Positions 1 to 16,838 of a DNA stretch of 20,000 nt are shown here, piece after piece (position 1 is the first letter of the stretch; each line of letters starts with the position of its first letter). The DNA lies in the IMG/VR virus record IMGVR_UViG_2724679352_000002, positions 44,905-64,904 of that record; one strand, given 5' to 3'. The notes under the pieces were generated by a model that saw nothing but the letters and a program-made list of their open reading frames with translations, was not told the origin of the DNA and made no database searches. The DNA is from an uncultured virus (IMG/VR IMGVR_UViG_2724679352_000002) (taxonomy: Duplodnaviria; Heunggongvirae; Uroviricota; Caudoviricetes). Position numbers and translations under genes: made by a program.

Positions 1-1012
1 ATTCGCCCAGCATCGGGATATCGACGTTGTTGCGGGTAAACAGGGCAGTAAGCACATCGGCCACCCGATCCATTTTCTCTGCTGGTATCCCCATCGCGGT
101 TTGAATATTAGACGCAATATCCGCTGCGGTGCCGAGATCGATATCACCGGCCGCCGCCAAATTCAGCATACCCGGCATCGCCCCTAATACCTGTTTCGGG
201 CTATAACCGGTACGACCAAGAAAATATTGCCCTTGCGCCACTTCCAGATCGGTAAATTTAGAGGACAGCGGCAAGGTACGGGCCTGATGGCGCATAGCTT
301 GCATATCCGGTGAGTTTTTATCAGGAATACGGGTAACGGCTTGGGTTTTACTCATCATGCCGTCAAATTCATAACCGACATGCAAGGCGTTCCCAATCCC
401 GCGGCCCATGGCGCGGCCGGTGGAGAGCGAGGTGTAACCCAATCCGGCGGCAATGGCTTTGCGCTGATTGCTGCTATCAAAGCGGTTACGGGCGGCGCTG
501 AGGCGCTGTTGCTGCTGGGCTTGCTGTTCTAATCGGCGCTGTTGTGCGGTCAGTGCGGCGGTGGTGCTGGTGATATTGGCTTTAAGGGATCGCTGTGCCT
601 GGCCTAATCGGTTGGTGGCAATGCCGCTGCTTTGCAATGCTCTGCGCTGGGTATGTAGCGCGGTGCGTAAATCATTGTATTTTTGTTTTAGCTTGGCGGC
701 CTCTTCGCTGGCGCGGCGAAACTCTCTGGCCTGTTTAGCGGTGGGCGCGGCACTGTTTTTTAATTCATTGGCAAGCTGGCGCGCTTTATCGCGGGCAGCG
801 GCTAGCGCCTGAGCAGCACCATTAACCGCCACTTTATTCTTGCGAAAGCCCTCAATGTTAGCCGCCTGGCTATTGAGTTGTTTAAGCTCTTGCTTGGAGT
901 TTTTAATGGATGCGGCCAGCATTTTATTGCTGGCCAACATAGATTTAAATGGCTTGGTAACTTTATCAATGGCACTTAAAGAAACCTGCAAGCGGAGGTT
1001 CTTATCGCTCAT
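1..1012 (-). CDS. gpT: P2-like tail tape measure protein, N-terminal part (runs off window)
   Basis: Manual translation from ATG at 1012 gives MSDKNLRLQVSLSAIDKVTKPFKSMLASNK..., which is Ala/Gln-rich and coiled-coil-like. It follows E/E'. Confidence 0.92.
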   Translation of the reverse strand, partial: MSDKNLRLQVSLSAIDKVTKPFKSMLASNKMLAASIKNSKQELKQLNSQAANIEGFRKNKVAVNGAAQALAAARDKARQLANELKNSAAPTAKQAREFRRASEEAAKLKQKYNDLRTALHTQRRALQSSGIATNRLGQAQRSLKANITSTTAALTAQQRRLEQQAQQQQRLSAARNRFDSSNQRKAIAAGLGYTSLSTGRAMGRGIGNALHVGYEFDGMMSKTQAVTRIPDKNSPDMQAMRHQARTLPLSSKFTDLEVAQGQYFLGRTGYSPKQVLGAMPGMLNLAAAGDIDLGTAADIASNIQTAMGIPAEKMDRVADVLTALFTRNNVDIPMLGE

Positions 1013-1185
1013 CACTGCCCCCGTTACGGATTATGGCCTTATGTCGCCATGCTAAAAGCTCACCTACAGTCATCGGGTCGGTGGCTGATGGCGGCCAATG
1101 GAATACCACGGCAATATCAGCCACCAAATCATCAACCGTCAGGCTTTCAGGTAATCGGACTTGACCGAGTTCGGTAAGAAAAAAA
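1002..1185 (-). CDS. gpE': Tail assembly chaperone extension E', reached by -1 frameshift from gpE
   Basis: The -1 frame reads ...LPESLTVDDLVADIAVVFHWPPSATDPMTVGELLAWRHKAIIRNGGSDER*. A T7 slippery run lies at 1179-1185. Confidence 0.88.
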
Positions 1186-1492
1186 TAGCCAACGCCTGAG
1201 ACAGCGCGTAGATATCAGCTGGATCAAGATTGCTGATTTCTGGCACGGTCAGGTTAGGGGTGGTGATGCGAGGTAATACTCGGATCAGCGCGTCAACATC
1301 GGTATCTAACAGCGCTTGCAATTTAGCCCCGCGCAATGCGCCAGCGGTGGGTTTATTGACCGTCACTTCGGTAATGGTGGTATTACCTCGGACAATAGGC
1401 ACATCCAATGTGATCACATTGAATTTGTCTTGCTCCAACGCTACGGTATCAATCACCGCGTTGGTTTCGTTTTCTGCTTTAACTTCTTTCAT
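1139..1492 (-). CDS. gpE: Tail assembly chaperone gpE
   Basis: The segment ITLDVPIVRGNTTITEVTVNKPTAGALRG...LIRVLPRIT is typical of P2 E. The likely start is ATG at 1492 (MKEVKAEN), with GGA upstream. Confidence 0.9.
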   Translation of the reverse strand: MKEVKAENETNAVIDTVALEQDKFNVITLDVPIVRGNTTITEVTVNKPTAGALRGAKLQALLDTDVDALIRVLPRITTPNLTVPEISNLDPADIYALSQALAIFFLPNSVKSDYLKA

Positions 1493-1545
1493 GATGGCTA
1501 TCCAAAAATAAAGGGTAAAGGCGCGGAGCATTCCACACCGTGATG

Positions 1546-2061
1546 TTACAAGCCGATATTGCGGCGGTGGGCTTCCAACATGTTCACGCCATTGACTATT
1601 TCGACCATATTCACAATGTCGATTTCAATCAACACTTCACCGTCCCACGTCAGTTTGTAGTAGGTGTTTTTAGTGGAAATCTTGGTGGTGGTGTTATCGC
1701 CTTGCTTGCTGTCACCGCCGTCGATTTCTTCATGACGGCCACGCATCACAATTTCTACTGCGTGGGTTTCGCCGGTATCGTCGCGCTGATAAGAGCCAGC
1801 AAAACGCAACATCACGCCATCGACTTTTGTCACCCCCCATTGCTTGTAAATCTCTGACTCAATGCCGCCCAGCGTCCAGTCAACATCTAGTGCGCCATCC
1901 GCCAGTCCTAAATCGACCTTGGCGCTGCCGTTCATCCCGCCACCGCGAAACTCTTCAAATTTGCGGTTCAATTTTGGCAAGGTGATGGACTCAACCACCC
2001 CTTGATAGCTGTTCCCGTTAACGAACACATTCAGGAACTTAAGTTTGCGTGGTAATGCCAT
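1546..2061 (-). CDS. gpFII: Major tail tube protein
   Basis: 171 aa, MALPRKLKFLNVF...RGGGMNG...RFAGSYQRDDTGE, the P2 FII pattern. Confidence 0.97.
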   Translation of the reverse strand: MALPRKLKFLNVFVNGNSYQGVVESITLPKLNRKFEEFRGGGMNGSAKVDLGLADGALDVDWTLGGIESEIYKQWGVTKVDGVMLRFAGSYQRDDTGETHAVEIVMRGRHEEIDGGDSKQGDNTTTKISTKNTYYKLTWDGEVLIEIDIVNMVEIVNGVNMLEAHRRNIGL

Positions 2062-2074
2062 GGTTTAAGCTCCC

Positions 2075-3250
2075 TTAGCTGTTAACTGCGGCGGCGAAAT
2101 TAGCCAGATGACGATCGGTAATCCGCTGACGCAGGGTTAAATCCTCCAGCGGCGGTACCGGCGTATAGTCGTAATCAATAAGCAAGCGGCCCGCTTTGAG
2201 TGTGTCTTTATCGTTCACGCTTTCGTCATACCAGCAGTCGCCATCAATGATGTAACCCATTGTTTTGAGTTCGCGCATTTTGGCGCGGATACCCTCAATA
2301 ATGTCTTTTACTATTGATGGATTCAGCGACTTATCGTTGGCCCACATGTGCGCCTCGGCCATGGTGTCAGCCAATACCTGTGCGGTGCGGGTGTAGTTCT
2401 CAAAGGCAAATAACGGATCATCGGAGCAAGAACGGGAACCCCAAAAACGGTAACCGTCTTTACGGATCAGAGTGGTAATGTCTTTACTGTTGAGCAAGTT
2501 GGCATCGGTGGCGCTGGATTGCAGATCCCAGAATACGTCCGCGCTAATACCAGTGACACCATTCACCCCGACGTTAGACAAGGACTTATGCCAGCCAACA
2601 TCATTATCAATCTTGGCACGTAAGCCCAAGGCGCGGGCGGTGGCGTAAGCGGTGGCCTCGGCATTAGTGACCGTGTCCCAACTGAGGAAATCCGGCCAAA
2701 TTAACATCGCTTCGCGTTGACTAAAGTTTTCGCGGTAAATAATGGCTTCTTCCATAGTTTTGCAACCGTAGGCGCTGATGTAAGCGAAAGCCCGTAAATC
2801 CTGAGCCACGGAAAGCAGGGCGGTGGATACCGCCAGAGTGTCATGGCCTGGCACCCCCAAAATGCGGGGCTTTACACCGAAACGGCCTTGTGCGGCCAAT
2901 AAAGCTTTCATGCCTGTTTTGCGGCCATCTGGCGTGGCACCGCCAATAATATTGGAAGTGGTTTCAGCTTCGGTTTCGCCCTGTGCGACGCGGACAACAA
3001 TGGTAAGTGGTTTGGTTTGGTCGCTAATGGCGGCCAGTGAGTGGGCTAAAGTGCCGGTTTTACCGGCCTTGCCACTGGCGGCCAGTACATCAGTGAGTAA
3101 TATCGGGGTATTTAACGGGAATAGGGTGGCGTCAGCATCATCGGAGGTACAGACCATCCCTACCACCGCCGTGCTGACAGTGCGGATCGGGCGAGTGCCT
3201 TCGTTAATTTCAATGACGCGCACACCGTGGTGGTAATCGGTTGCAGACAT
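2075..3250 (-). CDS. gpFI: Tail sheath protein
   Basis: 391 aa, DYHHGVRVIEINEGTRPI...GYRFWGSRSCSDDPLFAFENYTRTAQVLADT...YTPVPPLEDL. Confidence 0.97.
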   Translation of the reverse strand: MSATDYHHGVRVIEINEGTRPIRTVSTAVVGMVCTSDDADATLFPLNTPILLTDVLAASGKAGKTGTLAHSLAAISDQTKPLTIVVRVAQGETEAETTSNIIGGATPDGRKTGMKALLAAQGRFGVKPRILGVPGHDTLAVSTALLSVAQDLRAFAYISAYGCKTMEEAIIYRENFSQREAMLIWPDFLSWDTVTNAEATAYATARALGLRAKIDNDVGWHKSLSNVGVNGVTGISADVFWDLQSSATDANLLNSKDITTLIRKDGYRFWGSRSCSDDPLFAFENYTRTAQVLADTMAEAHMWANDKSLNPSIVKDIIEGIRAKMRELKTMGYIIDGDCWYDESVNDKDTLKAGRLLIDYDYTPVPPLEDLTLRQRITDRHLANFAAAVNS

Positions 3251-3296
3251 GCGGTTTTCTCCGGTTAAGCGTTCATTCGCTATGATGCCGGATACA

Positions 3297-3355
3297 ATGA
3301 TGCCGGATAATTAGGCGCGGGACAGGTGATGGGGGTTGTGTGAGGGATGGCACAA
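3297..3355 (-). promoter_or_regulatory. P2-type late promoter PF with Ogr/Delta activator site
   Basis: TGT-N12-ACA at 3337-3354, inside the 20-mer TTGTGTGAGGGATGGCACAA that is identical to 13330-13349. A -10-like CATCAT lies at the same spacing as in PV. Confidence 0.85.
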
Positions 3356-3566
3356 AAAAACAGATACGCAGATTCAGCGATATTCTCCACATAAAAACCG
3401 ACTGCATCACGAATATGAGTGCTATGCAGTGTTTCGTGTTGTAGCCGGTTTTTGCGGTGTAACCTTTATATCTCATTGTATTTACGGATCAACTCCTACA
3501 GATTCAAGATTATTGTGGATAGCTCACCGTCAATAAATCTCTTTCAGTGGTGGCCTATCCATTGTG

Positions 3567-3761
3567 TTAGAGGGTGAACGCTAATTCTAGTGACTCCTCG
3601 CTGTCCCGCAGATAAGTACTGTATAACGTATCAATCTGTTGCCACAAAATAAGCAAAAGCACCTCTTTAGTATCGGCACGATCAAGGGTGACGATGGCGT
3701 AAATCAGCGCGCGGCAGTGGTCGATAAGTTCTTCTACTTCGCGGGGGGTGTCATCATACAT
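3567..3761 (-). CDS. Small hypothetical helical protein (64 aa), second gene downstream of C4 module 1
   Basis: MYDDTPREVEELIDHCRALIYAIVTLDR..., preceded by a strong RBS (GGAGGTGCGCT-ATG). It overlaps the stop of the upstream peptide. Confidence 0.7.
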   Translation of the reverse strand: MYDDTPREVEELIDHCRALIYAIVTLDRADTKEVLLLILWQQIDTLYSTYLRDSEESLELAFTL

Positions 3762-3861
3762 AGCGCACCTCCGGCAGCAGAGGGGCAGATGAAGAAACAG
3801 GTGTGGGAATAGCAACAATAGTGCAGGTCAATAATGATAGGCGTTTAGTCGTCAGATCCAT
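3754..3861 (-). CDS. 35-aa peptide directly under C4-type antisense control (icd/kil position)
   Basis: MDLTTKRLSLLTCTIVAIPTPVSSSAPLLPEVRYV*. Its RBS (GAGGT) overlaps the C4 target at 3872-3881. Confidence 0.55.
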   Translation of the reverse strand: MDLTTKRLSLLTCTIVAIPTPVSSSAPLLPEVRYV

Positions 3862-3917
3862 GATGACTACCTCTTTGGTAGGGGATTAATCACCACCAAG
3901 AGACGCTAACCTCAGAG

Positions 3918-3998
3918 GGTGGTGAACTGGGCGGGGTTAGCGTAACCGGCTACCAAAGAACCCGGCGCATCTTGCGATGCCCCCACCCAGTTCACCGT
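3918..3998 (-). ncRNA. c4: C4-type (P1/P7 c4, P4 CI-like) antisense RNA, copy 1
   Basis: Closing stem 3921-3931/3986-3996 with two internal hairpins and a 3' CACCA-like end. Loop segments UCUUUGGUAG and ACGCUAACC are complementary to 3872-3881 and 3903-3911, and partly to 4059-4066 and 4076-4082. Confidence 0.85.
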
Positions 3999-4049
3999 TT
4001 CTTGCATATTACAGGTGTCACTGTGCCCGCACATAATAGCCGTGTCTAC

Positions 4050-4143
4050 GGTTGTGCGCTTTGGTAAATTCCGGGACGCTAATCCCGACAGCGGATTTTG
4101 CCGCTGCGGCGTGACTATAGCCCAGCGAAGTTATGGCGTGCAA
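4050..4143 (-). promoter_or_regulatory. sigma70 promoter plus structured leader carrying upstream C4 targets (a1/b1-like)
   Basis: TTGCAC-18-TATAGT (4143-4138, 4119-4114), followed by hairpins CAGCGG-CAAAAT-CCGCTG and CGGGA-TTAGCG-TCCCG that present the target. Confidence 0.75.
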
Positions 4144-4154
4144 TCAGCCCGCAT

Positions 4155-4198
4155 CACTTTAGGACAAACATTTTTTCTGTAAAAATAGGCAGTTATCG
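4155..4198. repeat. Dispersed repeat copy R1
   Basis: cactttaggacaaacattttttctgtaaaaataggcagttatcg. Confidence 0.9.
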
Positions 4199-4272
4199 CG
4201 GTGATGCTTTAAAGGATGGATGAGGTAACAAGTAGTAAGGAAGAAAAAGGGAAAGGGGTAATAAACAGCGCA

Positions 4273-4304
4273 AACAGACGACGTTTAAGGCAACATCGCC
4301 TGTT
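4273..4304 (-). terminator. Hairpin after rpn
   Basis: On the minus strand AACAGGCGATGTT-GCCTTA-AACGTCGTCTGTT, closed with G-U pairs. A related hairpin at about 5378-5411 follows the RpnS remnant. Confidence 0.6.
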
Positions 4305-4328
4305 AAAAGTAGGGATTTAGCTAGCAAC

Positions 4329-4502
4329 TTAATGGCAAATTTGTGCCAGTTCTTCTTCTCTCAGACCTGTCAGCTTCATGACTTCAGTGCGGTCATAACC
4401 ATTAGCGAGCATCGAGCTGGCAATCTTCAGGGCCATTTCTTGTACCCCTTCCACTCGGCCTGCTTGATGGGCTTTATATTCCAATTTCTGTGCAATCGTC
4501 AT
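4329..4502 (-). CDS. Internal in-frame small protein RpnS (intragenic antitoxin), 57 aa
   Basis: GAGGAGGAACTT-ATG within rpn gives MTIAQKLEYK...KLTGLREEELAQICH, matching the known RpnL/RpnS architecture. Confidence 0.75.
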   Translation of the reverse strand: MTIAQKLEYKAHQAGRVEGVQEMALKIASSMLANGYDRTEVMKLTGLREEELAQICH

Positions 4503-5225
4503 AAGTTCCTCCTCGTGCTGTGGCAGGTGGTGGGCCAGATCGCGGATAAACCTTTCCGGCTCAGCCGTGTCACCATTTTGTAGTATGTAATGTATCACAG
4601 AGATTAGCTGATCTTTACTAGTGTAACCGTTCGATAACAACCTGACCAGTTCATCCGATAATTCGGACAGGTCACGTTGACGAATGTGTTTCTGCAACAG
4701 CTCCAGTAAGGCGACACGCTTATGTGTCATGATTTCGTCATCGGGGATAACGGTCACATCAATCAACGGAAAGTTGCCGCCATACAGTTCCCCCGCAAGC
4801 GTGGGTGCACTGAATGCTTGTAACCAGCTCATGGGATACGGGTACGGCGTGACCATCCCATGATAGAACAACATGGGAATGACCAGAGGCAGTTTGTCGT
4901 GTCCGGCATCAAGATGGCTCTGCATAGCGGCGATGGCATAGCGCATCAGGCGAAAAGCCATATGCTTGTCGGGAGAACTTTGATGCTCGATCAGCGCGTA
5001 AACATAGCCATCCTGTCCCTGCATTTTTAGTGAGTAGAGTACGTCCGAGTAGTAGGCTCGCAGGTCATTTTCAATAAAGCTGCCCGACTCCAGCCGCAGT
5101 GTTTTCAGGTCACAGATTTTCCGCAGGGCGGGTGGTAAGTGAATATCCAGCAGATCATAAGCCGTTTCGGGTTTGGTGACGAAATTTTTAAAAAGTGCAT
5201 CATGGGGTGTAGGGGTCGTTTTCAT
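4329..5225 (-). CDS. rpn: Rpn/YhgA-like recombination-promoting nuclease (putative transposase family), 298 aa
   Basis: TPHDALFK...LRLESGSF...YSDVLYS...YALIEHQSSPDKHMAFRLMRYAIAAM...LPLVIPMLFYHG. The likely start is ATG at 5225. Confidence 0.95.
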   Translation of the reverse strand: MKTTPTPHDALFKNFVTKPETAYDLLDIHLPPALRKICDLKTLRLESGSFIENDLRAYYSDVLYSLKMQGQDGYVYALIEHQSSPDKHMAFRLMRYAIAAMQSHLDAGHDKLPLVIPMLFYHGMVTPYPYPMSWLQAFSAPTLAGELYGGNFPLIDVTVIPDDEIMTHKRVALLELLQKHIRQRDLSELSDELVRLLSNGYTSKDQLISVIHYILQNGDTAEPERFIRDLAHHLPQHEEELMTIAQKLEYKAHQAGRVEGVQEMALKIASSMLANGYDRTEVMKLTGLREEELAQICH

Positions 5226-5271
5226 CGGGCGATAATAGTCATGGGGATCAGTGTGAGCAATCACTCCGTAC

Positions 5272-5316
5272 CACTTTAGGACAAACATTTTTTCTATTTA
5301 AAATAATGAGTTATCG
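5272..5316. repeat. Dispersed repeat copy R2
   Basis: cactttaggacaaacattttttctatttaaaataatgagttatcg. Confidence 0.9.
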
Positions 5317-5429
5317 ATATAAATAAGAGAGAAAAAACAATCACAGTGCGGAATAAATAAGGTGCAAAAAATAGTAGAAACAAGGCGACGTCTAACACAA
5401 CATCGCCCGTTAGAATGGGGGTTAACGCG

Positions 5430-5593
5430 TTATTGCGTCAGGTCTTCATCACGTAGGCCAGTGACTTTCTTTACCAGAGTGCGATCAACACCTTCTGCCA
5501 ATAGAGAGTGGGCGATTTTCAGTATCGTCTCCCGCTGACTTTCCTGATAGCTTTCAGATAGCCTTCTAGTTCAAGTGATTCTGCAATTGTCAT
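5430..5593 (-). pseudogene. Stand-alone RpnS-like ORF / rpn 3' remnant with a 1-nt frameshift
   Basis: AAGGAAGCACTG-ATG gives MTIAESLELEGYLK, then after a shift near 5551, YQESQRETILKIAHSLLAEGVDRTLVKKVTGLRDEDLTQ*. The span is 164 nt, one short of 55 codons. Confidence 0.8.
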
Positions 5594-5682
5594 CAGTGCT
5601 TCCTTGTACTACGCCGAGTTGCTATTAGTCTTTCTCAGTTGACGGTGTTGATACTCACCATCTTGAGATTTTCATCGCTATA

Positions 5683-5762
5683 GGTGCTGAACTGGGCGGG
5701 GTTGACAGACCGGTCATCGAAGAACCCGGCGCATCTTGCGATGCCCCCGCCCAGCTCACCAT
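5683..5762 (-). ncRNA. c4: C4-type antisense RNA, copy 2 (diverged loops)
   Basis: The scaffold is near-identical to copy 1 (tgaactgggcgggg...agaacccggcgcatcttgcgatgccccc.cccag.tcacc) but the loop sequences differ. Confidence 0.75.
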
Positions 5763-5794
5763 TTCTTGCTTATTACCATGTAACCGTATCTATA

Positions 5795-5887
5795 TCATGC
5801 GCTTTGGTCTATGCCGGACCGCCAAATCCGGTAAAGGACTTTACCGCAGCGGTGCTGACTATAACCCGATGAGATTCTGCTGAGCAA
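5795..5887 (-). promoter_or_regulatory. sigma70 promoter plus C4 leader, copy 2
   Basis: TTGCTC-18-TATAGT (5887-5882, 5863-5858), with hairpins paralogous to 4050-4110. Confidence 0.65.
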
Positions 5888-5898
5888 TTAGCCAGTAT

Positions 5899-5944
5899 CA
5901 TTTTAGGACAAACATTTTTATCCGTTAAAATAATGAGTTACAGG
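5899..5944. repeat. Dispersed repeat copy R3
   Basis: cattttaggacaaacatttttatccgttaaaataatgagttacagg. Confidence 0.9.
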
Positions 5945-5967
5945 TGTAGTTAAAGGAGTTTTATACC

Positions 5968-5997
5968 GCTTCCGCTAAAGATAATAGTAGCGGAAGC
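5968..5997 (-). terminator. Hairpin downstream of the Icd-like operon
   Basis: 10-bp inverted repeat gcttccgcta / tagcggaagc. Confidence 0.55.
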
Positions 5998-6006
5998 CGG
6001 TGAAAT

Positions 6007-6327
6007 TTATTGCCTGGTCAACTCGTTGTTTGTGAGCTTGGCGTTTGCTGATGCTTGCAATTGAGTGAGGGCAGGTACCAGGATACTGATTGATGCCAGA
6101 CAATGGCCTAACTGGCACAAACTTTCTACTGAGAAATCCAACACATCGTTATCGGCGAAGGTAACAAAAGTATCCCCGATAAAATTCAGCCCATGCAGCA
6201 GTCCGGCGTAACATTCCTCGCTACTGTTTGCCAGTTCCAGTGTGTCATCAGCACTCAGGTGTGACATATCCAGCTTACCGAACACCTCAGTCAATGTGGG
6301 ATAAAGTCTATTGGTATCAGGCAACAT
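6007..6327 (-). CDS. Hypothetical helical protein (106 aa) coupled to the Icd-like gene
   Basis: MLPDTNRLYPTLTEVFGKLDMSHLS..., preceded by RBS AGGAGAAGCGCC-ATG. It overlaps the upstream stop. Confidence 0.7.
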   Translation of the reverse strand: MLPDTNRLYPTLTEVFGKLDMSHLSADDTLELANSSEECYAGLLHGLNFIGDTFVTFADNDVLDFSVESLCQLGHCLASISILVPALTQLQASANAKLTNNELTRQ

Positions 6328-6523
6328 GGCGCTTCTCCTGTGGTTTGCAAGAAACAAACACCAGCGAGAAACCGGCCAGCAGATTGCGGGCCTCACGCTC
6401 AGTGGGAGCCAAAACAGAAATCAGGCGCAACGGAGAAATTTCAGCCAATAATGTGTTAGAACGGGCGTTAAGGAAGGTGTAGAGCTTTGAATATGCACGT
6501 ATGTTACTATTAGCGTCAGCCAT
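6317..6523 (-). CDS. Host cell division inhibitor Icd-like protein (68 aa)
   Basis: MADANSNIR...YTFL...ISVLAPTEREARNLLAGFSLVFVS carries the A-x-TEREAR...LVF pattern. RBS GAGGTAATGCT-ATG. Confidence 0.65.
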   Translation of the reverse strand: MADANSNIRAYSKLYTFLNARSNTLLAEISPLRLISVLAPTEREARNLLAGFSLVFVSCKPQEKRHVA

Positions 6524-6595
6524 AGCATTACCTCGTATAATGGTGTGGTTAGATGTCCTGTGAGTGTTCACGCACCCACGGGGCATTGTCTTTAC
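6517..6595 (+). ncRNA. Putative SymR-like cis-antisense RNA over the Icd-like RBS and start
   Basis: Extended -10 TGTTACTAT at 6502-6510. A plus-strand hairpin at 6554-6586 is supported by G-U pairs. The leader layout resembles symE/symR loci. Confidence 0.5.
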
Positions 6596-6657
6596 TGAGT
6601 GCTGTACATTGGTGTACATTTAAAACCAGTTAAAGAAATATACCCGAGTGATAACCA

Positions 6658-6837
6658 ATGTCAACCAAAGACAACCAAAAAGAAAGGAATGTTGTTCAAC
6701 TTCGGTTGGATGCTGATTTGTCCGAAAGACTGACTATCGCTATGAAAGAAGATGGCGATGATAACAAAGCAGGATGGATTAAACGGTTACTACGCCGAGA
6801 GTTAGATCGTCGCGGCATTGAGCTTAAAGGTGAGTAG
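6658..6837 (+). CDS. Small ribbon-helix-helix-like DNA-binding protein (59 aa; below the ORF-track cutoff)
   Basis: MSTKDNQKERNVVQLRLDADLSERLTIAMKEDGDDNKAGWIKRLLRRELDRRGIELKGE*, with strand VQLRL followed by two helices. Confidence 0.75.
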   Translation: MSTKDNQKERNVVQLRLDADLSERLTIAMKEDGDDNKAGWIKRLLRRELDRRGIELKGE

Positions 6838-6893
6838 CATCATAAAAACAGACGGGTTTACTGATTAGAGTTGGCCTTGTGCACTTTTTAAGT

Positions 6894-6929
6894 AAGTCGA
6901 ACAGTCCGAAAACGTGGACTGTTCGACTT
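6894..6929. terminator. Probable bidirectional terminator
   Basis: Perfect 14-bp inverted repeat aagtcgaacagtcc / ggactgttcgactt between convergent genes. Confidence 0.75.
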
Positions 6930-6931
6930 TG

Positions 6932-7228
6932 TTAAGTAGTCGTGCTCACCTGACGCTGAACCGAGCGAACGATAGAGAAAAAATTACGCACCGTTGGGTT
7001 ACTGCCAGGAGCCAGCATTTGCATGACTGATTTGCTGTTTTTCCCAATATCTTCACCTACGGTAACAAACCCGCCAGTAGCGAGTATCAGCCAGCGTAAA
7101 ATCACTGCTGCGGAATCAAATTCACCCTCAGCAATAAGTTCTTTTGCCTCATCAAACATCGCCTGACGATAATCAGGATCTTCGCGCATCTCTTGCACGA
7201 TCCGTTGGTTAACAGAAACTGCCGGCAT
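6932..7228 (-). CDS. HTH antitoxin (addiction module antidote, HigA-like)
   Basis: 98 aa with GGF...IGK...MLAPGSNPT motif, directly downstream of the toxin. Confidence 0.8.
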   Translation of the reverse strand: MPAVSVNQRIVQEMREDPDYRQAMFDEAKELIAEGEFDSAAVILRWLILATGGFVTVGEDIGKNSKSVMQMLAPGSNPTVRNFFSIVRSVQRQVSTTT

Positions 7229-7230
7229 AA

Positions 7231-7569
7231 TTATTTACCTCTCTTTTCTTTCAGATAACACTTACGATATTTTTCAGCATTATCAAGATCTTTGTCCTGA
7301 GCCGATTTATCTCCAGCACATAACAAGATGATTAGCTCATCACCATCCTGCATCAAATACAGTCTAATACCCGGCCCCCAATTAATGCGGTATTCACCGA
7401 TACCGGGACGACCACTGAGCCATTTTACAGATGACGTATTCCCTACCATTAAACGAGCAATTGCTGAGTCGATTTTCACTCTCGCTTGAGGGTTTTTTTT
7501 ACGCCATTTATCCAGAGGGCTGATACCTTCAGGCGTCTGGTATTCTTTGATGGTGATTTCAAGTCTCAT
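7231..7569 (-). CDS. RelE/ParE-superfamily toxin (addiction module killer, HigB-like)
   Basis: GIGEYRINWGPGIRLY...IILLCAGDKSAQDKD motif, in toxin-first order. Confidence 0.88.
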   Translation of the reverse strand: MRLEITIKEYQTPEGISPLDKWRKKNPQARVKIDSAIARLMVGNTSSVKWLSGRPGIGEYRINWGPGIRLYLMQDGDELIILLCAGDKSAQDKDLDNAEKYRKCYLKEKRGK

Positions 7570-7574
7570 GGATG

Positions 7575-7604
7575 AATGGTAATTTATATATTACCATTTA
7601 ACAA
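7575..7604 (-). promoter_or_regulatory. Promoter/operator of the HigBA-like module
   Basis: Inverted repeat aatggtaat-N6-attaccatt (7575-7598) overlapping TTGTTA-17-TACCAT. Confidence 0.7.
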
Positions 7605-7651
7605 GGTGCAGGGTAGGAAAAATAAGACTAAAAAGCAATTTTAAGTGTTAC

Positions 7652-7732
7652 GGTGATGCTTCCCTTGCGACGTGGATAAAAAGGATATTGCGTAAAGAGT
7701 TACGCGAAAGAGGCATTGAACCTAAAGGTTAG
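7652..7732 (+). pseudogene. 3' remnant of a paralogue of the RHH gene at 6658-6837
   Basis: GDASLATWIKRILRKELRERGIEPKG* aligns with GDDNKAGWIKRLLRRELDRRGIELKGE*. No N-terminus is present. Confidence 0.75.
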
Positions 7733-7739
7733 GTGAGTA

Positions 7740-7798
7740 TATACAATGTATAACTTTTGATTGTTCTCTTTGGTACTTGAGGTTATACTTTGTATAAT
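7740..7798 (+). promoter_or_regulatory. Operator palindromes and -10 of the MazEF/ChpSB-like module
   Basis: tatac-aat-gtata (7740-7752) and ttatac-ttt-gtataa (7783-7797), the latter overlapping TATAAT. Confidence 0.65.
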
Positions 7799-7818
7799 TT
7801 CTTGCGGGGGATAATACT

Positions 7819-8070
7819 ATGACTATAGCAATCAAAAAGTGGGGCAACAGTAGTGGCGTTGTCTTGCCCTCATTATTGTTGAAAAAACTAGGTGTGACCA
7901 ACGGGCAACATCTTGATGCAGAAATAAAGAATGGCTCATTGATTCTGACCCCAACACAACGCCGTTACACGCTTGAAGAGTTAGTCGCGCAATGTGATAA
8001 AAATGCGCCAATGACGGCAGAAGAGGATGTTTGGGGTAACGACGCACCGACAGGGAATGAAATATGGTGA
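7819..8070 (+). CDS. AbrB/MazE-family antitoxin (ChpS/PemI-like)
   Basis: IKKWGNSSGVVLP...YTLEELVAQCD...GNEIW. Confidence 0.93.
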   Translation: MTIAIKKWGNSSGVVLPSLLLKKLGVTNGQHLDAEIKNGSLILTPTQRRYTLEELVAQCDKNAPMTAEEDVWGNDAPTGNEIW

Positions 8071-8420
8071 AGCGTAAGCAGGGATGGAATCGCGGCGATA
8101 TCGTTTTAGTAGACTTTAACCCGGCAATGGGGAGTGAGCAGCGAGATGCTCGTCCAGCGCTGGTATTGACAAAAAAACTGTTTAACAATCTCGGCATGGC
8201 CCTTGTTGCCCCAATAACTCAGGGCGGTAACTATGTGCGCCATGCTGGTTTTACCGTGTCGCTGTCGGGTACAGGATGTACAACACAAGGCGTCGTTTTA
8301 CTCAATCAAGTCCGAATGCTCGATCTTATGGCACGAAATGCCCGCTTTGTGGAGCAACTTGATGAAGTCGCCGTAAATGACGCTCTGCTGAAATTTGCGA
8401 CTCTCGTCGAAATTGACTAG
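8064..8420 (+). CDS. PemK/MazF-family endoribonuclease toxin (ChpB-like)
   Basis: RGDIVLVDFNPAMGSEQRDARPALVL...VAPITQGG...GVVLLNQVRMLD. Confidence 0.93.
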   Translation: MVKRKQGWNRGDIVLVDFNPAMGSEQRDARPALVLTKKLFNNLGMALVAPITQGGNYVRHAGFTVSLSGTGCTTQGVVLLNQVRMLDLMARNARFVEQLDEVAVNDALLKFATLVEID

Positions 8421-8995
8421 CCAAGAAATATTGGTAGGGGTTTTATACCAATCAATTACGCTCGTATTGAGGTTGCTCTGCACGTTCTCTTAAAAAATCA
8501 TCTGAAACGTGCGGGCTACTGAGGAAAAAACTATCCCATGCATTTTTAACAGGTAACAAAATACGCTCATTTTTTACAACTTTTGGTTTAATGTTTTCTT
8601 TAAAATACATATCTACCTTATATGACATATTTTATAAGCTAATAAATAGAATCTAAGAGAAATATTTGATAGAAATTGTGAAATTTTTATTGATTCATTT
8701 TAGCTATTTAAGTCTCTCTAAAAAAGACATCTGCAATCCATTAAGTCATGCTAGTTTGGTTTTTCGACCCATTGTCTAACAGGATTAGACAACGGGCGAT
8801 ATTTTCAAACGATAGAGAGTCATCTTTTGTAGCCCCGTAGACACAATAATTCAGTTTATGGCGATAACTGTAGCCCTTGGGATACAAGAAATTAAAAAAT
8901 CATCGTCAATAAAGCGACTGATTCAGTAGACAATACACTGACAAATATCCCGCCAACTGTAACCACGGGCATCATCCCGAACAATGCCTCAACCT

Positions 8996-9040
8996 CACTT
9001 TAAGACAAATATTTTCCAAGTTAAAATAACGAGTTACAGG
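8996..9040. repeat. Dispersed repeat copy R4
   Basis: cactttaagacaaatattttccaagttaaaataacgagttacagg. Confidence 0.85.
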
Positions 9041-9137
9041 ATAGGTTACTGCAATCTCCCAAGGTTTTTGATGAGAATTCGAGTATTTTGTTGATTGAAT
9101 TTACCCTCCAACTCTCTATTCAGTTATTAAGCTTTAT

Positions 9138-9166
9138 TTGATTTTGTAGCTCAGTTGAGCCACAAT
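9138..9166 (+). promoter_or_regulatory. dinJ-yafQ promoter/operator
   Basis: TTGATT-17-CACAAT overlapped by the palindrome ttgtagctca-gt-tgagccacaa (one mismatch). Confidence 0.7.
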
Positions 9167-9195
9167 GTGGTCTCCAACTAAAAGGAGGCTTTACT

Positions 9196-9456
9196 ATGGC
9201 CGCAAATGCTTTTGTTCGTGCTCGTATAGACGAAACCCTAAAAAATGAAGCCGCTGCTGTGCTTGCTGGCATGGGTTTAACCGTATCCGATCTGGTGCGG
9301 ATAACCTTAACCAAGGTCGCCCGAGAAAAAGCGCTTCCGTTCGATTTGAGTATTCCTAACGAACTTACCGCTAAAACTATTGCCAACAGCGAGAAAGGTG
9401 TCGATGTCCATAAAGCAAAGGATGCCGATGATCTGTTTGATAAATTAGGTATCTGA
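9196..9456 (+). CDS. dinJ: RelB/DinJ-family antitoxin
   Basis: MAANAFVRARIDETLKNEAAAVLAGMGLTVSDLVRITLTKVAREKALPFDL...DADDLFDKLGI. Confidence 0.95.
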   Translation: MAANAFVRARIDETLKNEAAAVLAGMGLTVSDLVRITLTKVAREKALPFDLSIPNELTAKTIANSEKGVDVHKAKDADDLFDKLGI

Positions 9457-9462
9457 TAGACC

Positions 9463-9741
9463 ATGATTAAACAAAGGGAAATTGAATATTCAGGTCAGTT
9501 CCAGAAAGATGTGAAAAAAGCTCAGAAGCGCCATAAAGATATAAATAAACTTAAAGTCATTATGACGCTTCTGATTAACGATAAATTGCCCTTGCCTGTT
9601 GTATATAAGGATCATCAATTACAAGGTAATTACAAAGGTTACAGGGATGCACATATAGAGCCAGACTGGCTTATCATCTACAAGATTACTGATGATTTGC
9701 TTCGCTTCGAAAGGACAGGAAGCCATTCTGATCTATTTTAG
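9463..9741 (+). CDS. yafQ: YafQ-family mRNA interferase toxin
   Basis: REIEYSGQFQKDVK...KDHQLQG...YRDAHIEPDWLIIYK...FERTGSHSDLF. Confidence 0.95.
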   Translation: MIKQREIEYSGQFQKDVKKAQKRHKDINKLKVIMTLLINDKLPLPVVYKDHQLQGNYKGYRDAHIEPDWLIIYKITDDLLRFERTGSHSDLF

Positions 9742-9753
9742 GTATCACTCAGC

Positions 9754-9780
9754 CTCATTTTAAGACAAACATAAAATAAG
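9754..9780. repeat. Dispersed repeat copy R5 (shortened), abutting the end of the tail fibre assembly gene
   Basis: ctcattttaagacaaacataaaataag. Confidence 0.75.
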
Positions 9781-9783
9781 CTG

Positions 9784-10200
9784 TCATTGCGGCAACTCCG
9801 GCCAGTCAATCTCTGGCGCAGCGCTGGTGTTGATGCGCATTAACGCGACGCGGTACTGTTTGAATGCCGCCAATTGCTGAATATCAGTCTGTTGATTATC
9901 CATTGCGATAGCGTCGAGTAGGATGTTGATGTGATCTGATACCTGATTTATCAGCGCGGTTTTCTGTTGGCTTGCGGCGGCAATATGGCGGGCTTTTAAT
10001 GCCTGTTGATCGACTTCCCAGGCGGTTCCTGTCCATATATCAAACTCATGCATTGGCTGAATCAGTGTTTTATTGTGTGGAATGGGGCGAGCACAAAAAT
10101 GATGGATTCATGTTTTGTTTCAATGTCATACACCGTTTGATGGCGATAGTCTGCCACTGTTACCCACTGGTTAGCAGTTAAATCCCTGACCAATGCCATG
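9784..10200 (-). pseudogene. Tail fibre assembly chaperone (Tfa/gpG-like) remnant: 5' deleted, frameshift near 10088
   Basis: ALVRDLTANQWVTVADYRHQTVYDI... continues in another frame as PIPHNKTLIQPMHEFDIWTGTAW...YRVALMRINTSAAPEIDWPELPQ*. Confidence 0.85.
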
Positions 10201-10916
10201 CCGGTTTTTGTCAGCGCATTGATCCCCGCCGAGGCAATAATGCAGGGGCCACCCCAGCCAAATGCCCCGACCTGCATGAGTTCATCTTGAGCATTACCCA
10301 CATTTCTGGTGGCCGCAGAGCCTAATTGCAAGTTAGTCCGCGCCGCTTTGGTATCGCTAAGATCAAATAAATTGTGGCTGGCGAGGAGATATTGCGGGTG
10401 TGGATTAAGGGTGCGGATATGGTTGCTGATTGAGGTTACAGTGGTGCTGATGAGTTGGTCGGCATATTGGCGTGTTGCCAGCACCACTGCTGGGTCGGTT
10501 TTCAGGATAACGGCTGCTGTGCTGCTGACGGCCAAAATGACTCGAATAGTCTGGATGCGGCCACTGCCTTCCTGCATTTGTGGCTTATAACTTTCCGGGC
10601 AATTGGCGATGGCAATTAACTCTCCGGCTTTATTCAGCAAACCAATCTCCCGGATCCACCACCCGCCCTCGGTCTCAGGGATAATTTGCTCCACAATAAT
10701 CTGATGGGGATTGCTCGGGTCAATGGTCAGGGCATTAAGGGCGGCGCGGCGTTGTTCATTCACCAGTTGGGTTTGTGCCGGGCTAGGGGTTGGCAGGGTT
10801 CCACCGCCATCCCCGACCGCCATGTGGGTAATCTCTAAGCGGGTGCCGAGCGCAGTGGCGTTCGCCAGTTTGGCCGCGCCGATATGGGTCAGTAAGGCGA
10901 AGTATTTAGCGGTCAT
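10062..10916 (-). pseudogene. gpH: Tail fibre gpH N-terminus, truncated and fused in frame to a Tfa fragment
   Basis: The P2 H-type N-terminus (KYFALLTHIGAAKLANA...MAVGDGGG...GGWWIREIGL...NCPESYKP) switches to Tfa sequence after TKTGM. Confidence 0.88.
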
Positions 10917-11395
10917 ATTGAGTCCATTCGATAGGGGTACACGGTCAACTCATCACCGCTGTAACTGGTGGCAGCCACAGTCAGCGGGCCGCTACTTTCC
11001 AGATTAATCGATAGGCCGATCAAATGGCGACTACAGGGTTTGGCATCAAAAATCAGCCGCTCCAGCTCGGGGTACATTTCCTCGGTAATGCCTGTTTCCA
11101 ACACCCACATCAAGGCGAAAGGTGCCGGGGGTTTCGTTGGTCTTCCACCACTCAATCACCTTAATGAGATAGCCGAGCGGCTCAACCACGCGACGAATTG
11201 CGCCGATGGTGCCTTTGTGTTTGTGCACGTACTGCGAGGACTTCACCACCGCGCGCTTGGCGGCTTCCGGCCATTTCTCATCCCAGCGGTCCACAGCTGG
11301 CGTAATGGCACGTCAATGTCAGCCATGCGGGCGCAGGCTTGTGCGGCGGCAATTTCCAACGGGGTAGAGCCAACCGGCAATAGTCGTTTATTCAT
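10913..11395 (-). pseudogene. gpI: Baseplate/tail protein gpI with an internal deletion and frameshifts
   Basis: Three pieces in different frames: MNKRLLPVGSTPLE...PLRQLW, then DRWDEKWPE...GTFRLDVGV, then LETGITEEMY...AKPCSRHL. The conserved CP..LP.LAW segment is missing. Confidence 0.9.
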
Positions 11396-12296
11396 CTGAG
11401 CCACCCGCCGTTAATGTATAGCCAGCGCACCAGGCGGCTTGTGTTTTATTGAGTACCACATCAGCAACCGGCGCAGTCAGCTCTACCCGCTGCACACCCT
11501 CGACATGCAGTGCGGCATAAATAGCAGATTTGCGAATATCCCGCCCTAAGCGGCGCTGAGTGCTGATATAGCTTTTTAGCCTGGCTTCGGCTGCGGCTCG
11601 AATCGGCTCGGCTTCCGGCCCCGGATAAAAATAGAGCGTGGCGTCAATCTGATACTCAACGATGGTGGCAGAATTGACGGTTAAGCGGTCAGCTACCGGG
11701 CGCACGTTCTCATCGTTTAGCGCTATAAATACCTTATCTAATAAATACTGTGCCGCTGTACCATTTCCCTCGCGAGATAGCACGGTGACGGTAACGCACG
11801 CGGGGGAGGGGCTGATTGCGGAAGCATCGGCCACCCGACCATCCGCACTGCGGGCGTGATACTCGTAAGCACCCGTTGGCCCGGCCACGCTCAAACCCTC
11901 AAAGGCTTGCGGAATACGCATACGGAAATCGTCGTCAGATTCCATCACTGCGGTAATAGGTGGGATTGTGTCTGGATTGGCTGGCGTGATGGTTAACCGC
12001 TCAATACCATTATTTGCGCCGAGGTGATCTAAGTCGCTGCCAATAGCATGGGCTACCATCACCGCTTGCGCTCCCTCATTGACACGCTGACGCAACAGCA
12101 ATTCACGGTAGGTACTTTCCTGCAACAGCTTCACGATGGGTTCCGACTCAAATGACAACGTTAGGCGCACCGCGTCTTGTTGATCAGCCGGATATAAGGC
12201 GATAAATTCCTCTTTGCGCACGGCAAACAGGCTTTCAAAATCCAGTGATTCAATCACCAGCGGGGCCGGTAACTGGCTTAAATCAATGATTGCCAT
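11388..12296 (-). CDS. gpJ: Baseplate assembly protein gpJ
   Basis: IDLSQLPAP...ESEPIVKLLQE...LSVAGPTGAYEYHA...VRPVADRLTV. Confidence 0.96.
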   Translation of the reverse strand: MAIIDLSQLPAPLVIESLDFESLFAVRKEEFIALYPADQQDAVRLTLSFESEPIVKLLQESTYRELLLRQRVNEGAQAVMVAHAIGSDLDHLGANNGIERLTITPANPDTIPPITAVMESDDDFRMRIPQAFEGLSVAGPTGAYEYHARSADGRVADASAISPSPACVTVTVLSREGNGTAAQYLLDKVFIALNDENVRPVADRLTVNSATIVEYQIDATLYFYPGPEAEPIRAAAEARLKSYISTQRRLGRDIRKSAIYAALHVEGVQRVELTAPVADVVLNKTQAAWCAGYTLTAGGSDE

Positions 12297-12652
12297 TATT
12301 GACTTCCTATTGGCACGGCCAAACTCAACCGACTGTCACTATCGGTGCGACTTCCGGTTAAATCCACCATCATCTTGCCGTCTTTTTGAGTGGTGATACT
12401 GATGGCATTCAGCGTCACGCGCGGCTCCCAGCGCATCACTGCGCCATACACCGCCACCATCATTTTGAGACGTAAGGCGGGATTTTGTGGCTGGTCAATC
12501 AGGGTTGATAGCAAGGAGCCATAATCACGGCGCATCACTCGCGAGCCTTGCGGCGTGGTCAGAATGTCGCTGATTGACTGGCGAATGTGGTCAATATCTC
12601 CGATGTTTAAACCGCTGTTGCGGTTCATACCGATATATTTATAGCTGGTCAT
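12296..12652 (-). CDS. gpW: Baseplate wedge protein gpW
   Basis: DHIRQSISDILTTPQGSRVMRRDYGS...RWEPRV. Confidence 0.96.
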   Translation of the reverse strand: MTSYKYIGMNRNSGLNIGDIDHIRQSISDILTTPQGSRVMRRDYGSLLSTLIDQPQNPALRLKMMVAVYGAVMRWEPRVTLNAISITTQKDGKMMVDLTGSRTDSDSRLSLAVPIGSQ

Positions 12653-13284
12653 TTAACCCCCTCAGTCCAGCTTCCGCCGCGCTGCACGCCGCCGTGGTCA
12701 TGCTTATCAACCACCACGCCATTAGATGAAAGTTTCCCGCCGGAATGCGTGACATTACCGCTCATAGTGCCACCTTGCTTCACGTTCAGCGTGGCGGTGG
12801 TCAGGTTGTGGGTGCATTCCACTTCTGGCGTATCCAGTGTGATTTTGACTGATGCGGTACAGGTGATATTGGGGGCGGTGACAGTGACTGACTTGCTGGC
12901 ATCAATCACTGCGGTGGCTATTCCGGTGACAGCCAGGTGACTGGTTTCCGGCTCATACTCAAAACGCGCACCATCGGGAAAAGTGATCACCATGGCATCC
13001 GCCGATTGTGACGGCGCGGAATTGGCATCTGAAAAAATGGCGGGCAGCACAAAACCGGTAGTGAGTTCACCGCCGATACTCAACACCATAACTTGTTCAC
13101 CCACTGATGGCGCAGACCAAAAGCGCACTCGACCGGCGCGTAGGGTTAACCAATTTAGCCAATCGGTTTCAAGGTTGCCTATCTTGACCCGGCATAATCC
13201 GTTAGCAAGATCGACGTCTGAGACGATGCCAATACGGATAATGTTAGCCAACAGGCGTTTAAGGCCAGCAATAAGGATATTCAT
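12649..13284 (-). CDS. gpV: Baseplate spike protein gpV
   Basis: MNILIAGLKRLLANIIRIG...WSAPSVGEQV..., with a C-terminal metal-binding HDH motif. The start was reassigned to ATG at 13284. Confidence 0.95.
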   Translation of the reverse strand: MNILIAGLKRLLANIIRIGIVSDVDLANGLCRVKIGNLETDWLNWLTLRAGRVRFWSAPSVGEQVMVLSIGGELTTGFVLPAIFSDANSAPSQSADAMVITFPDGARFEYEPETSHLAVTGIATAVIDASKSVTVTAPNITCTASVKITLDTPEVECTHNLTTATLNVKQGGTMSGNVTHSGGKLSSNGVVVDKHDHGGVQRGGSWTEGVK

Positions 13285-13290
13285 GCGGCC

Positions 13291-13349
13291 AGTGTGCCGC
13301 CTACGGGCGCGCGCGGCATGTGATGGGTTTTGTGTGAGGGATGGCACAA
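13291..13349 (-). promoter_or_regulatory. P2-type late promoter PV with Ogr/Delta activator site
   Basis: TGT-N12-ACA at 13331-13348. A -10-like CACACT at 13296-13291 lies 6 nt before the gpV ATG. Confidence 0.85.
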
Positions 13350-15280: not shown

Positions 15281-15333
15281 TGTGATATTTACTCACCTGC
15301 ATCACACTAATTAATCACTATAGGAATCACACT

Positions 15334-16391: not shown

Positions 16392-16838
16392 TCACAGACT
16401 AATAAAATCCAACGCCAGATCCCCAATCCATTCACTATCGCCGTCAGTAAAGCCCAATAACTGGCGGCGCTCGTATTTCACTGTTGGCCCGTTGCGGCTA
16501 ACCTTATCGCGTAAGCCGTAGTGATGCACTCGCACCAGATTATTGACCTTACCGCTAAAGGTAACGGCGGCCTCGTCGGCGTTGGATTCGTTTTTGATAT
16601 AACGGGCGGTACGCAGTTGGGTAAACATATTGCGCTTGATACGGCCTTGTTTATCACGGCGTTTTTTCTTGCGCGGCACAAAGGGTGAGCCGTCCGGGTT
16701 CTGCTGTGCCTGAATATGCTTTTGCTGGCGCTGGCGTAACTCTTTAGCCACTTGACGCATAAACGCACCGCGTGCCTGTGGTGCCAATTGCGCCAGCAAA
16801 ATGGATAAAGTTTGGTCTAATTCCTGTAAATCATTCAT
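16392..16838 (-). CDS. gpS: Tail completion protein gpS
   Basis: QQNPDGSPFVPRK...RVHHYGL...RRQLLGF. ATG at 16838 overlaps the gpR stop (ATGA). Confidence 0.93.
   Translation of the reverse strand: MNDLQELDQTLSILLAQLAPQARGAFMRQVAKELRQRQQKHIQAQQNPDGSPFVPRKKKRRDKQGRIKRNMFTQLRTARYIKNESNADEAAVTFSGKVNNLVRVHHYGLRDKVSRNGPTVKYERRQLLGFTDGDSEWIGDLALDFISL

Follow-up and report, generated by a model that had tools for sequence, protein, structure and literature searches.

The PeSLs (promoter-early stem-loops) of T4-type phages are copies of a short conserved sigma70-type promoter motif repeated between the non-essential genes of a hyperplastic region, and in the portions of Arbiol et al. 2010 (PMC2839356) drawn on here, indels and replacements between close relatives are bounded by this motif and the shuffling is ascribed to inter-motif recombination. 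Rapid swapping of defence and toxin cargo also occurs at fixed sites of P2-like phages, as described for the P2 and P4 defence hotspots (Rousset et al. 2022, PMC9122126; Moura de Sousa et al. 2026, PMC13586616); the excerpted texts of these two papers dwell on hotspots that adjoin cos or lie between gpA and gpQ, the mechanism of swapping being left open in both, and no boundary repeat was found in searches of their main texts. Here we analysed a 20,000-nucleotide (nt) stretch of an uncultured virus (positions 44,905 to 64,904 of IMG/VR record IMGVR_UViG_2724679352_000002; hereafter the window), which is part of a Yersinia P2-like prophage with its late genes on the minus strand. Five copies of a short repeat divide the toxin–antitoxin and defence cargo lying between its tail-fibre assembly gene G and its tail sheath gene FI into cassettes. 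We put the probability at about 60% that these copies are regulatory cassette boundaries like the PeSLs, shuffled by homologous recombination.

On this reading, there would be a family of sigma70-type promoter regions whose conserved upstream portion is the repeat, with a core centred near -55 followed by 11 nt and then by -35-like and -10-like hexamers, and these regions would head add-on transcription units (morons), namely C4/isrK RNA modules, rpn and toxin–antitoxin pairs, stacked between G and FI. Because the identical unit heads every cassette, it would offer short direct homology, and unequal homologous recombination from unit to unit, inside a single genome or among co-resident phages, could add, delete or reorder whole cassettes. 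As such recombination would suffice, the stacking would need no dedicated enzyme. The original prediction, which had proposed the repeat as a possible recombination or homology site at which modules stack in an integron-like manner, is confirmed in its observation and partly supported in its interpretation.

The repeat and its promoter-like layout

A pattern search of the window found exact matches of CAYTTTARGACAAAYA at 4155, 5272, 5899, 8996 and 9756 (n = 5; R1 to R5), all on the plus strand, where 0.10 copies are expected by chance and none of 200 shuffles gave five or more matches; no sixth copy was found in the window with up to two mismatches. The whole 64.9-kb proviral record yielded the identical five sites with up to one mismatch (reversed control, 0), and a 125-nt profile of the unit found just these copies at E<=10. 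All five lie inside the G–FI interval, from the G stop at 9784 to the FI start at 3250. Matches to 8-mers of the core elsewhere in the 64.9-kb record were 40 in number and scattered, and an operator-like cluster was not found among them. A T-rich spacer and an AAAATA..AGTTA tail are complete in copies 1 to 4, and copy 5 is short of 13 nt there. Every copy is intergenic once rpn is started at 5225, and the Pfam YhgA-like match of its product begins at residue 6; the alternative longer open reading frame (ORF), 4329-5288, would start at an ATG within copy 2. The distance from the end of copy 5 to the G stop codon is 13 nt. The original prediction was therefore accurate in describing five co-oriented copies with this spacer and tail and a shortened copy at 9756, confined to the G–FI interval, intergenic with the later rpn start and, in the case of R5, abutting a phage gene.

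The copies align best as the reverse complement, i.e. on the strand of the phage late genes. Read in this direction, a full unit of about 60-80 nt runs from an AT-rich tract through the core, an 11-nt spacer, a -35-like hexamer and a further 17-18 nt to a -10-like hexamer. The consensus of the AT-rich tract is (G/T)(A/T)TAAC-N3-5-TATTTT(T/A)A-N3-6, the near-invariant core is AAAAAATGTTTGTCCTAAARTG, with a longer form AAAAAATGTTTGTCCTAAA(G/A)TG, and the most conserved stretch of the unit extends over about 22 nt. In R1 to R4 the core stands exactly 11 nt 5' of TTGCAC, TTGCTC or TTGTTC (-35-like, TTG(C/T)(A/T)C), and 17-18 nt 3' of that hexamer follows TATAGT, TATTAT or TACAGT; the 11-nt spacing is kept in five downstream classes across relatives.

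All five units are on the minus strand. The R1 unit (4108-4195) has its AT-rich tract at 4171-4195, its core at 4155-4170, TTGCAC at 4138-4143 and TATAGT at 4114-4119, with a predicted start at about 4107. The R2 unit (5226-5312) has its core at 5272-5287, TTGCTC at 5255-5260 and TATTAT at 5232-5237, the last being 6 nt 5' of the rpn ATG (5225), and the R3 unit (5851-5944), which heads the second C4 copy, has them at 5899-5914, 5882-5887 (TTGCTC) and 5858-5863 (TATAGT). R4 (8950-9036; core 8996-9011, TTGTTC 8979-8984, TACAGT 8956-8961) heads the small ORFs at 8741-8887 and 8452-8628. The truncated R5 unit (9744-9778) keeps the core (9756-9771) and the AT-rich tract minus 13 nt, has no promoter hexamers, and amounts to a 36-nt remnant enclosed by the stop codons of G (9784-9786) and yafQ (9739-9741).

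R1 is followed by a c4-a1b1 motif, an isrK-like RNA and a C4 antisense RNA, and R3 by a second C4 RNA and then by a frameshifted remnant resembling the 3' end of rpn. The Rfam isrK model starts at 4107, 7 nt past the -10 hexamer of R1, and this is exactly the position from which other phages' C4 modules (those of Hafnia phage yong2, APSE-2 and Stx phages) show homology; the core is thereby placed at about -55.5 relative to the start so predicted. The C4 module of the Hafnia phage has TATAGT upstream and lacks the core. We infer that the hexamers fire and that a bound protein or a promoter function holds the core invariant. The c4-a1b1 model reaches 13 nt 5' of the isrK start; these positions are unpaired and thus give no evidence for an upstream promoter.

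Several identities for the core were considered. The site of Ogr/Delta-activated P2 late promoters, which we take to be TGT-N12-ACA centred near -55, is a poor match: the core reads TGT-N12-GAT, GGT or GAG, though it is centred at about -55.5, and the true FI site is TGT-N12-ACA. Likeness to CRP, IHF, Fis, LexA, Fur and DnaA sites or to the P2 cox box, judged by eye against consensus sequences, gave no fit across unit classes. On the minus strand the core also reads as a five-codon mini-ORF, ATG TTT GTC CTA AAG/AAA TGA (MFVLK stop), at 4155-4172, 5899-5916 and 9756-9773, where variation at either of the two variable core positions is silent. ATG is replaced by ATA in the R4 type and GTC by ATC in 9 of 81 distinct windows, and in R2 the frame continues into rpn (the ORF at 4329-5288); the mini-ORF is probably a coincidence.

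Cassette orders and breakpoints

Oriented loci were cut at G ends, cores and FI starts, and the segments were clustered at >=80% mutual coverage. Cassettes cut in this way recur in many different orders. Four segment types were found in front of the commonest of them, the rpn cassette (22 copies, 1092-1165 nt), and five behind it; for the C4-2 cassette (14 copies) the corresponding numbers are five and three. In 12 related hotspots a core stands 16-29 nt past the G stop, with an R4-type unit heading cassettes c9 and c15 and yafQ-type units in the others. The cargo of the relatives is nearly all toxin–antitoxin (Gp49/HTH, HigB/Xre, RelE/MqsA-like, HipBA, HicAB, PIN and MazEF).

Since these cut points had been chosen by the analyst, a core-anchored test was run as an independent check, in which 92 distinct 616-nt core-centred windows were compared in 4186 pairs. 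Core aligned to core in 2867 of the 4186 pairs. Where homology was not full length, it ended sharply, its upstream limit falling at a distance of 25-45 nt, with 1219 pairs in the 25-30 nt range, and its downstream limit 0-20 nt past the core, with 416 pairs in the 0-5 nt range, 681 in the 15-20 nt range and none between 25 and 60 nt. Homology reaching no more than 45 nt upstream and yet running full length downstream was seen in 386 pairs, and full length upstream with at most 15 nt downstream in 33. Chimeric units were observed that join a C4-1-type upstream half to an rpn promoter, as well as the reverse, and in a contingency table of 80 distinct units u0 occurred with d0, d1 and d3, and u1 with d0, d1 and d5. 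Contigs of relatives from RNA libraries omit exactly dinJ-yafQ, with joints 9021->9772 and 9027->9786, the former lying inside R4/R5 with 8 nt that fit either side; another such contig departs from the window 2 nt inside the R1 core. The proposal that the repeat is a cassette boundary is thus borne out, with gain, loss and reordering junctions of relatives falling in or at the repeat, though many breaks lie elsewhere.

The copies might instead be paralogous promoter/operator regions that travel with the C4 and rpn morons and are kept alike by a regulator site, the shuffling being due to illegitimate recombination or to exchange in flanking genes. We regard this as possible and rather unlikely. 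It would account for the fact that the unit accompanies C4 and rpn cassettes at V–W and 5' of R/S, for the longer upstream homology that each main class has of its own, for the many breakpoints away from units and for the age of the cassettes, the rpn cassettes being 79-98% identical to the window copy. What it does not readily explain is that some units join the upstream half of one class to the promoter of another, that the cassette-free junction of a relative lies inside the repeat, and that homology ends cluster at unit edges. In the test of ends of high-scoring segment pairs, 20.8% of 1942 ends were within 30 nt of a core, against 4.3% of random positions; this test is noisy because of paralogous matches (C4-1 with C4-2, rpn with the remnant) and is superseded by the core-anchored one. 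Set against protein identities, a prophage with FI at 72% identity has cassettes at 88-91%, and prophages with FI at 91% have cassettes at 80-84%, which suggests a mild incongruence between cassettes and FI.

An alternative that we consider improbable is that the core is a dedicated site-specific recombination site, integron- or pdif-like, at which a recombinase encoded elsewhere in the phage or host moves cassettes as circles. A near-invariant core of 16-22 nt within class-dependent flanks, a single orientation common to all copies, opposite-orientation cassettes that are core-flanked even where they have no promoter, and a core on either side of dinJ-yafQ, as the insertion of a circle would leave, would all agree with such a site. 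Chimeric units likewise put crossovers within about 22 nt, but an identical stretch also resolves homologous crossovers, so that the chimeras do not separate the two mechanisms. On the other side, homology often extends 45-100 nt past the core in a class-specific manner, and the units contain no inverted repeat. Folding the DNA of each of the five units, both strands included (n = 10), gave no shared structure and no consistent single-strand hairpin (z from -2.46 to +0.61). A search of 3200-10100 for a dif-like 28-bp site (XerC arm, 6-bp spacer, XerD arm) found none, the best match scoring 18/28 away from any unit, compared with a mean maximum of 17.2 and a highest value of 20 in shuffles. Nor did Pfam find integrase, resolvase or transposase families among the 29 ORFs of the window, a scope that leaves aside the rest of the 64.9-kb record; the YhgA-like Rpn nuclease is the exception, just as the original prediction had stated. 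A single common promoter serving promoter-less cassettes was not found in the window either, as four of the five units have putative hexamers of their own and dinJ-yafQ and mazEF are on the other strand. An integron-like, site-specific mechanism is therefore not supported. If, against our expectation, the 22-nt core were the recognition site of a new host- or phage-encoded recombination system by which circular toxin–antitoxin and defence cassettes enter and leave phage late operons, it would represent a phage-borne integron analogue with a promoter element as its basis, and the rapid swapping of cargo at P2-type hotspots would gain a concrete mechanism.

The Rpn nuclease itself had been put forward as a speculative recombinase candidate, and breakage of DNA at or near the core by the array-encoded protein could drive RecA-independent cassette exchange. 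Rpn proteins reportedly raise RecA-independent recombination (work attributed to Kingston and colleagues, 2017), and the rpn cassette, the commonest of all, has units on both sides. Rpn proteins are not known to have sequence specificity. Full-length rpn is absent from 8 of the 31 arrays with at least two cores, and in the excerpted text of a more recent study Rpn proteins are described as toxin–antitoxin and anti-phage proteins (10.1101/2023.05.02.539157). We consider a role of this kind very improbable.

A number of observations weigh against promoter-type boundaries shuffled by homologous recombination, which we nevertheless prefer. The -35-like hexamers agree with TTGACA at just three of six positions, and because of this a generic promoter scan did not call the hexamers of R1 to R4. 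The scan's own candidate lies inside the unit (TTTACA/TTAACG, 16-17 nt, TAAAGT/TAAAAT), where TAAAGT/TAAAAT is the 3' half of the core, so that the unit itself may be the promoter, 41 nt upstream of the other candidate; weak candidates on the plus strand were called as well. The RNA-library data are assembled contigs with 9-14% of words, giving no starts, strands or levels, and the parts of the window not covered by these contigs carry no information. The core is more conserved than the promoter hexamers, which a plain promoter does not account for, although the figure is inflated because loci were fetched by exact core match, and the core persists at junctions that have no hexamers. Cassettes in opposite orientation (dinJ-yafQ; HigB/Xre, c6) start 0 or 12 nt past the core and lack hexamers. 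Three joints (6555->9135, 6575->8669 and 5949->8738) fall away from cores, in the segment-pair test 817 of 1055 right-hand ends were more than 155 nt from any core, and the terminator stem-loop of a PeSL is absent inside the unit here. The invariance of the core could reflect a bound protein, a -10 function in a promoter or homogenisation by recombination itself. Taking both sides together, we still consider that recombination at the units is probably homologous rather than site-specific.

Distribution and content of the hotspot

The exact 18-nt core pattern was found at 66 loci in 38 IMG/VR proviral contigs. In a set of 28 Yersinia genomes (one per species) the exact 16-nt core was present in nine, at 27 sites compared with 3 in the reversed control; in multi-copy genomes the sites form co-oriented clusters, within the limits of the assemblies (3+4 in G306, 4 in G046 and 5 over four small contigs in G302). 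Across the family, 301 genomes searched with up to one mismatch gave 33 places versus about 54 for the reversed control (counted from the table), which indicates that single one-mismatch matches are chance; only G046, with its four-copy cluster, and G001 looked real. An exact match in G211 was rejected as a unit, as a promoter-like continuation is absent there. A pattern scan of genome contigs returned, among the matches listed, almost only chance hits in unrelated phyla, and only one locus, in Yersinia artesiana (L081), was useful.

An unbiased sample of 80 loci related by FI gave two matches to the unit profile, in Y. thracica and Y. aldovae, with none in the 75 non-Yersinia loci or in the three remaining Yersinia loci; the G–FI gap measures 131-2965 nt in the 30 of these loci with a recognisable G. 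A scan for self-repeats 5' of FI in 68 loci of other species did not find a multi-copy unit array, and a two-copy repeat was present in 17 of the 68, one of which (L298) has several pairs. The repeat is a lineage-specific feature of these hotspots and not a general chromosomal transcription-factor site, since it is restricted to Yersinia hotspot clusters in the genomes searched; wide occurrence upstream of chromosomal genes, which would have pointed to an ordinary regulator site, was not seen. This condition and the other one set by the original prediction, breakpoints unrelated to the repeat, were both checked, and the proposal of a cassette boundary withstood both.

Some of the related arrays deserve mention in their own right. 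In 2724679353_000002 and 2660238100_000009 (within L206-L207 and L218-L219), a unit with a C4-type promoter stands between V and W, in the former directly after an rpn gene, and a degenerate unit lies 5' of R/S, from which it follows that cassettes are not tied to the G–FI site. Locus L156 (G046:C29) has, at oriented positions 3910-6680, a run of four consecutive units, of which three head C4-type RNA cassettes and one heads an rpn cassette; two of its units are nearly identical, which suggests a recent tandem duplication. IMG/VR 2671180868_000004 (L186/L187) carries a second partial H-G segment, consisting of a tail-fibre end and an assembly gene, in the middle of its array.

In the window, Pfam identifies the late genes T, E, FII and FI at 1-3250, G, H, J, W and V at 9784-13347, and S with a truncated R at 16392-17146. 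The hotspot is bordered upstream by G (9784-10053, minus strand, 89 aa, PF02413) and downstream by FI (2075-3250, minus strand, PF04984 and PF17482). The late promoter element of FI, TGT-N12-ACA (TGTGCCATCCCTCACACA, 3337-3354, minus strand), is conserved with the G–FI interval of Yersinia phage vB_YenM_42.18, to which 3200-3294, comprising the FI start and the bases just upstream, is 97% identical. This 'empty' interval is 152 nt long in vB_YenM_42.18, compared with about 6.5 kb in the window. A 12-nt sequence (ATCCGGCATCAT) just 3' of the FI late promoter element is duplicated in tandem in the window (3290-3325, minus strand) and present once in that phage.

Between these borders, the cassette of R1 contains C4 antisense RNA copy 1 (3915-4002; RF01695, 75.9 bits), the isrK-like RNA (4033-4107; RF01394, 59.7 bits) and the c4-a1b1 target motif (4068-4120; RF03163, 52.7 bits), all on the minus strand and above gathering score in Rfam. 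It is closed by an 83-aa ORF 3' of this C4 copy (3567-3818, minus strand; phrog_16030) and a hairpin with a T run at 3393-3453. The second C4 copy lies at 5680-5766 (minus strand; Rfam, 74.7 bits). The features of a C4/immI-type module are thus found in the cargo of R1 and R3, not in the repeat. The rpn gene (4329-5225, minus strand) encodes a YhgA-like nuclease of 298 aa (PF04754, E 2.6e-86), and an RpnS-like frameshifted remnant (5430-5593, minus strand), whose likeness to the rpn 3' end was judged by eye, shares a 3' hairpin and flank with it (4276-4308 versus 5383-5415, 82% identical). Of these hairpins, the one at 5383-5408, about 100 nt 5' of R2 and homologous to 4276-4308, is the only terminator-like hairpin near a unit.

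The cargo between R4 and R3 (6007-8887, both strands) comprises small ORFs, mazEF (7819-8420, plus strand; MazE/PemK by Pfam), a toxin-like 112-aa ORF with its 98-aa partner (6932-7569, minus strand; a PHROG 'toxin' match for the former), a 59-aa ORF on the plus strand, and 100-aa and 129-aa ORFs (phrog_20855 and phrog_19484). The dinJ (RelB family) and yafQ genes (9196-9741, plus strand; RelB/YafQ by Pfam) are flanked by the cores of R4 and R5 and run opposite to the units. The module contents originally proposed therefore stand for RelB/YafQ, MazE/PemK, Rpn and the two C4 RNAs, and the labels 'higBA', 'RHH' and 'icd-like' found no family support.

A conserved hairpin (GCTTCCGCTA..TAGCGGAAGC; 5960-6000 in the window) stands about 45 nt 5' of every C4-2-type unit, so that this class carries a longer conserved upstream arm. 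It is also present at the ends of cassettes c5, c8, c10, c13, c15, c19, c24 and c34 and adjoins the recurring pair of 100-aa and 129-aa ORFs. Outside the hotspot, two genes at 13673-16377 on the plus strand, for an acyl-CoA dehydrogenase/oxidase-like protein of 535 aa and a fatty-acid desaturase of 347 aa, form an unusual cargo in a second late-operon slot, lying between the baseplate gene V and the tail-completion gene S and on the strand opposite to them. The truncated gpR covers only Pfam positions 54-133, and an autotransporter with PATR repeats follows at 17709 (region 16835-20000); judging from this arrangement, the prophage may be a remnant without lysis and head genes on the gpR side.

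Comparison with known systems

Integrons share with this locus a tandem array of small modules, many of them toxin–antitoxin, with a repeated co-oriented site between them. They differ in that IntI, an attC that forms a hairpin and one promoter common to all cassettes are absent here, and most cassettes have a promoter-like region of their own, some being inverted. The pdif modules of Acinetobacter plasmids, as described by Blackwell and Hall, are discrete modules, including toxin–antitoxin ones, bounded by short sites with no adjacent recombinase gene. The present cassettes resemble them in all these respects, except that the 11-6-11 site of XerC/XerD type is absent.

Morons, known from the work of Juhala et al. 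(2000) and Hendrix, are independent transcription units among prophage late genes that are likely expressed from the lysogen. The cassettes of this hotspot would likewise form independent transcription units between late genes: the G–FI insertion has an empty site in relatives, and a promoter and terminator of its own can be assigned by sequence. In contrast to morons, which are usually single and have unrelated control regions, up to five of them share a promoter-proximal unit here. Two of the five units head bona fide genes of the C4 RNA family, as known from the P1 immI operon (C4 RNA; RF01695, RF03163) and Gifsy-1 IsrK (RF01394). The C4 modules of other phages have no core upstream, which makes the unit a lineage-specific addition rather than part of the C4 family. 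No description of the unit was found in the literature on c4-a1b1, on C4/isrK prophage RNAs and on toxin–antitoxin morons of Yersinia P2-like phages.

We believe that this tail-gene interval, in which up to five toxin–antitoxin, RNA and nuclease modules form an array, bears on how the prophage 'junk' between late genes is to be read. One lineage offers a concrete substrate for the fast swapping of P2-hotspot cargo, a unit of 60-80 nt at cassette heads with crossovers mapped there, and the question of how cassettes are swapped becomes testable.

PeSL cassettes of T4-type phages are reportedly also the subject of work by Comeau et al. in 2014. With respect to these cassettes, the setting differs, being a temperate P2-like prophage as opposed to a lytic T4-type phage, and so does the cargo, which consists of toxin–antitoxin and defence modules and C4 RNAs instead of ORFans; the putative promoter layout is read from the sequence. 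As in the PeSLs, a repeated promoter-like motif bounds insertions, deletions and replacements between relatives, alongside other breakpoints. What is new is the finding of probable regulatory boundaries of the modular-shuffling kind in the toxin–antitoxin and defence hotspot of a temperate phage, found only in Yersinia among the genomes searched.

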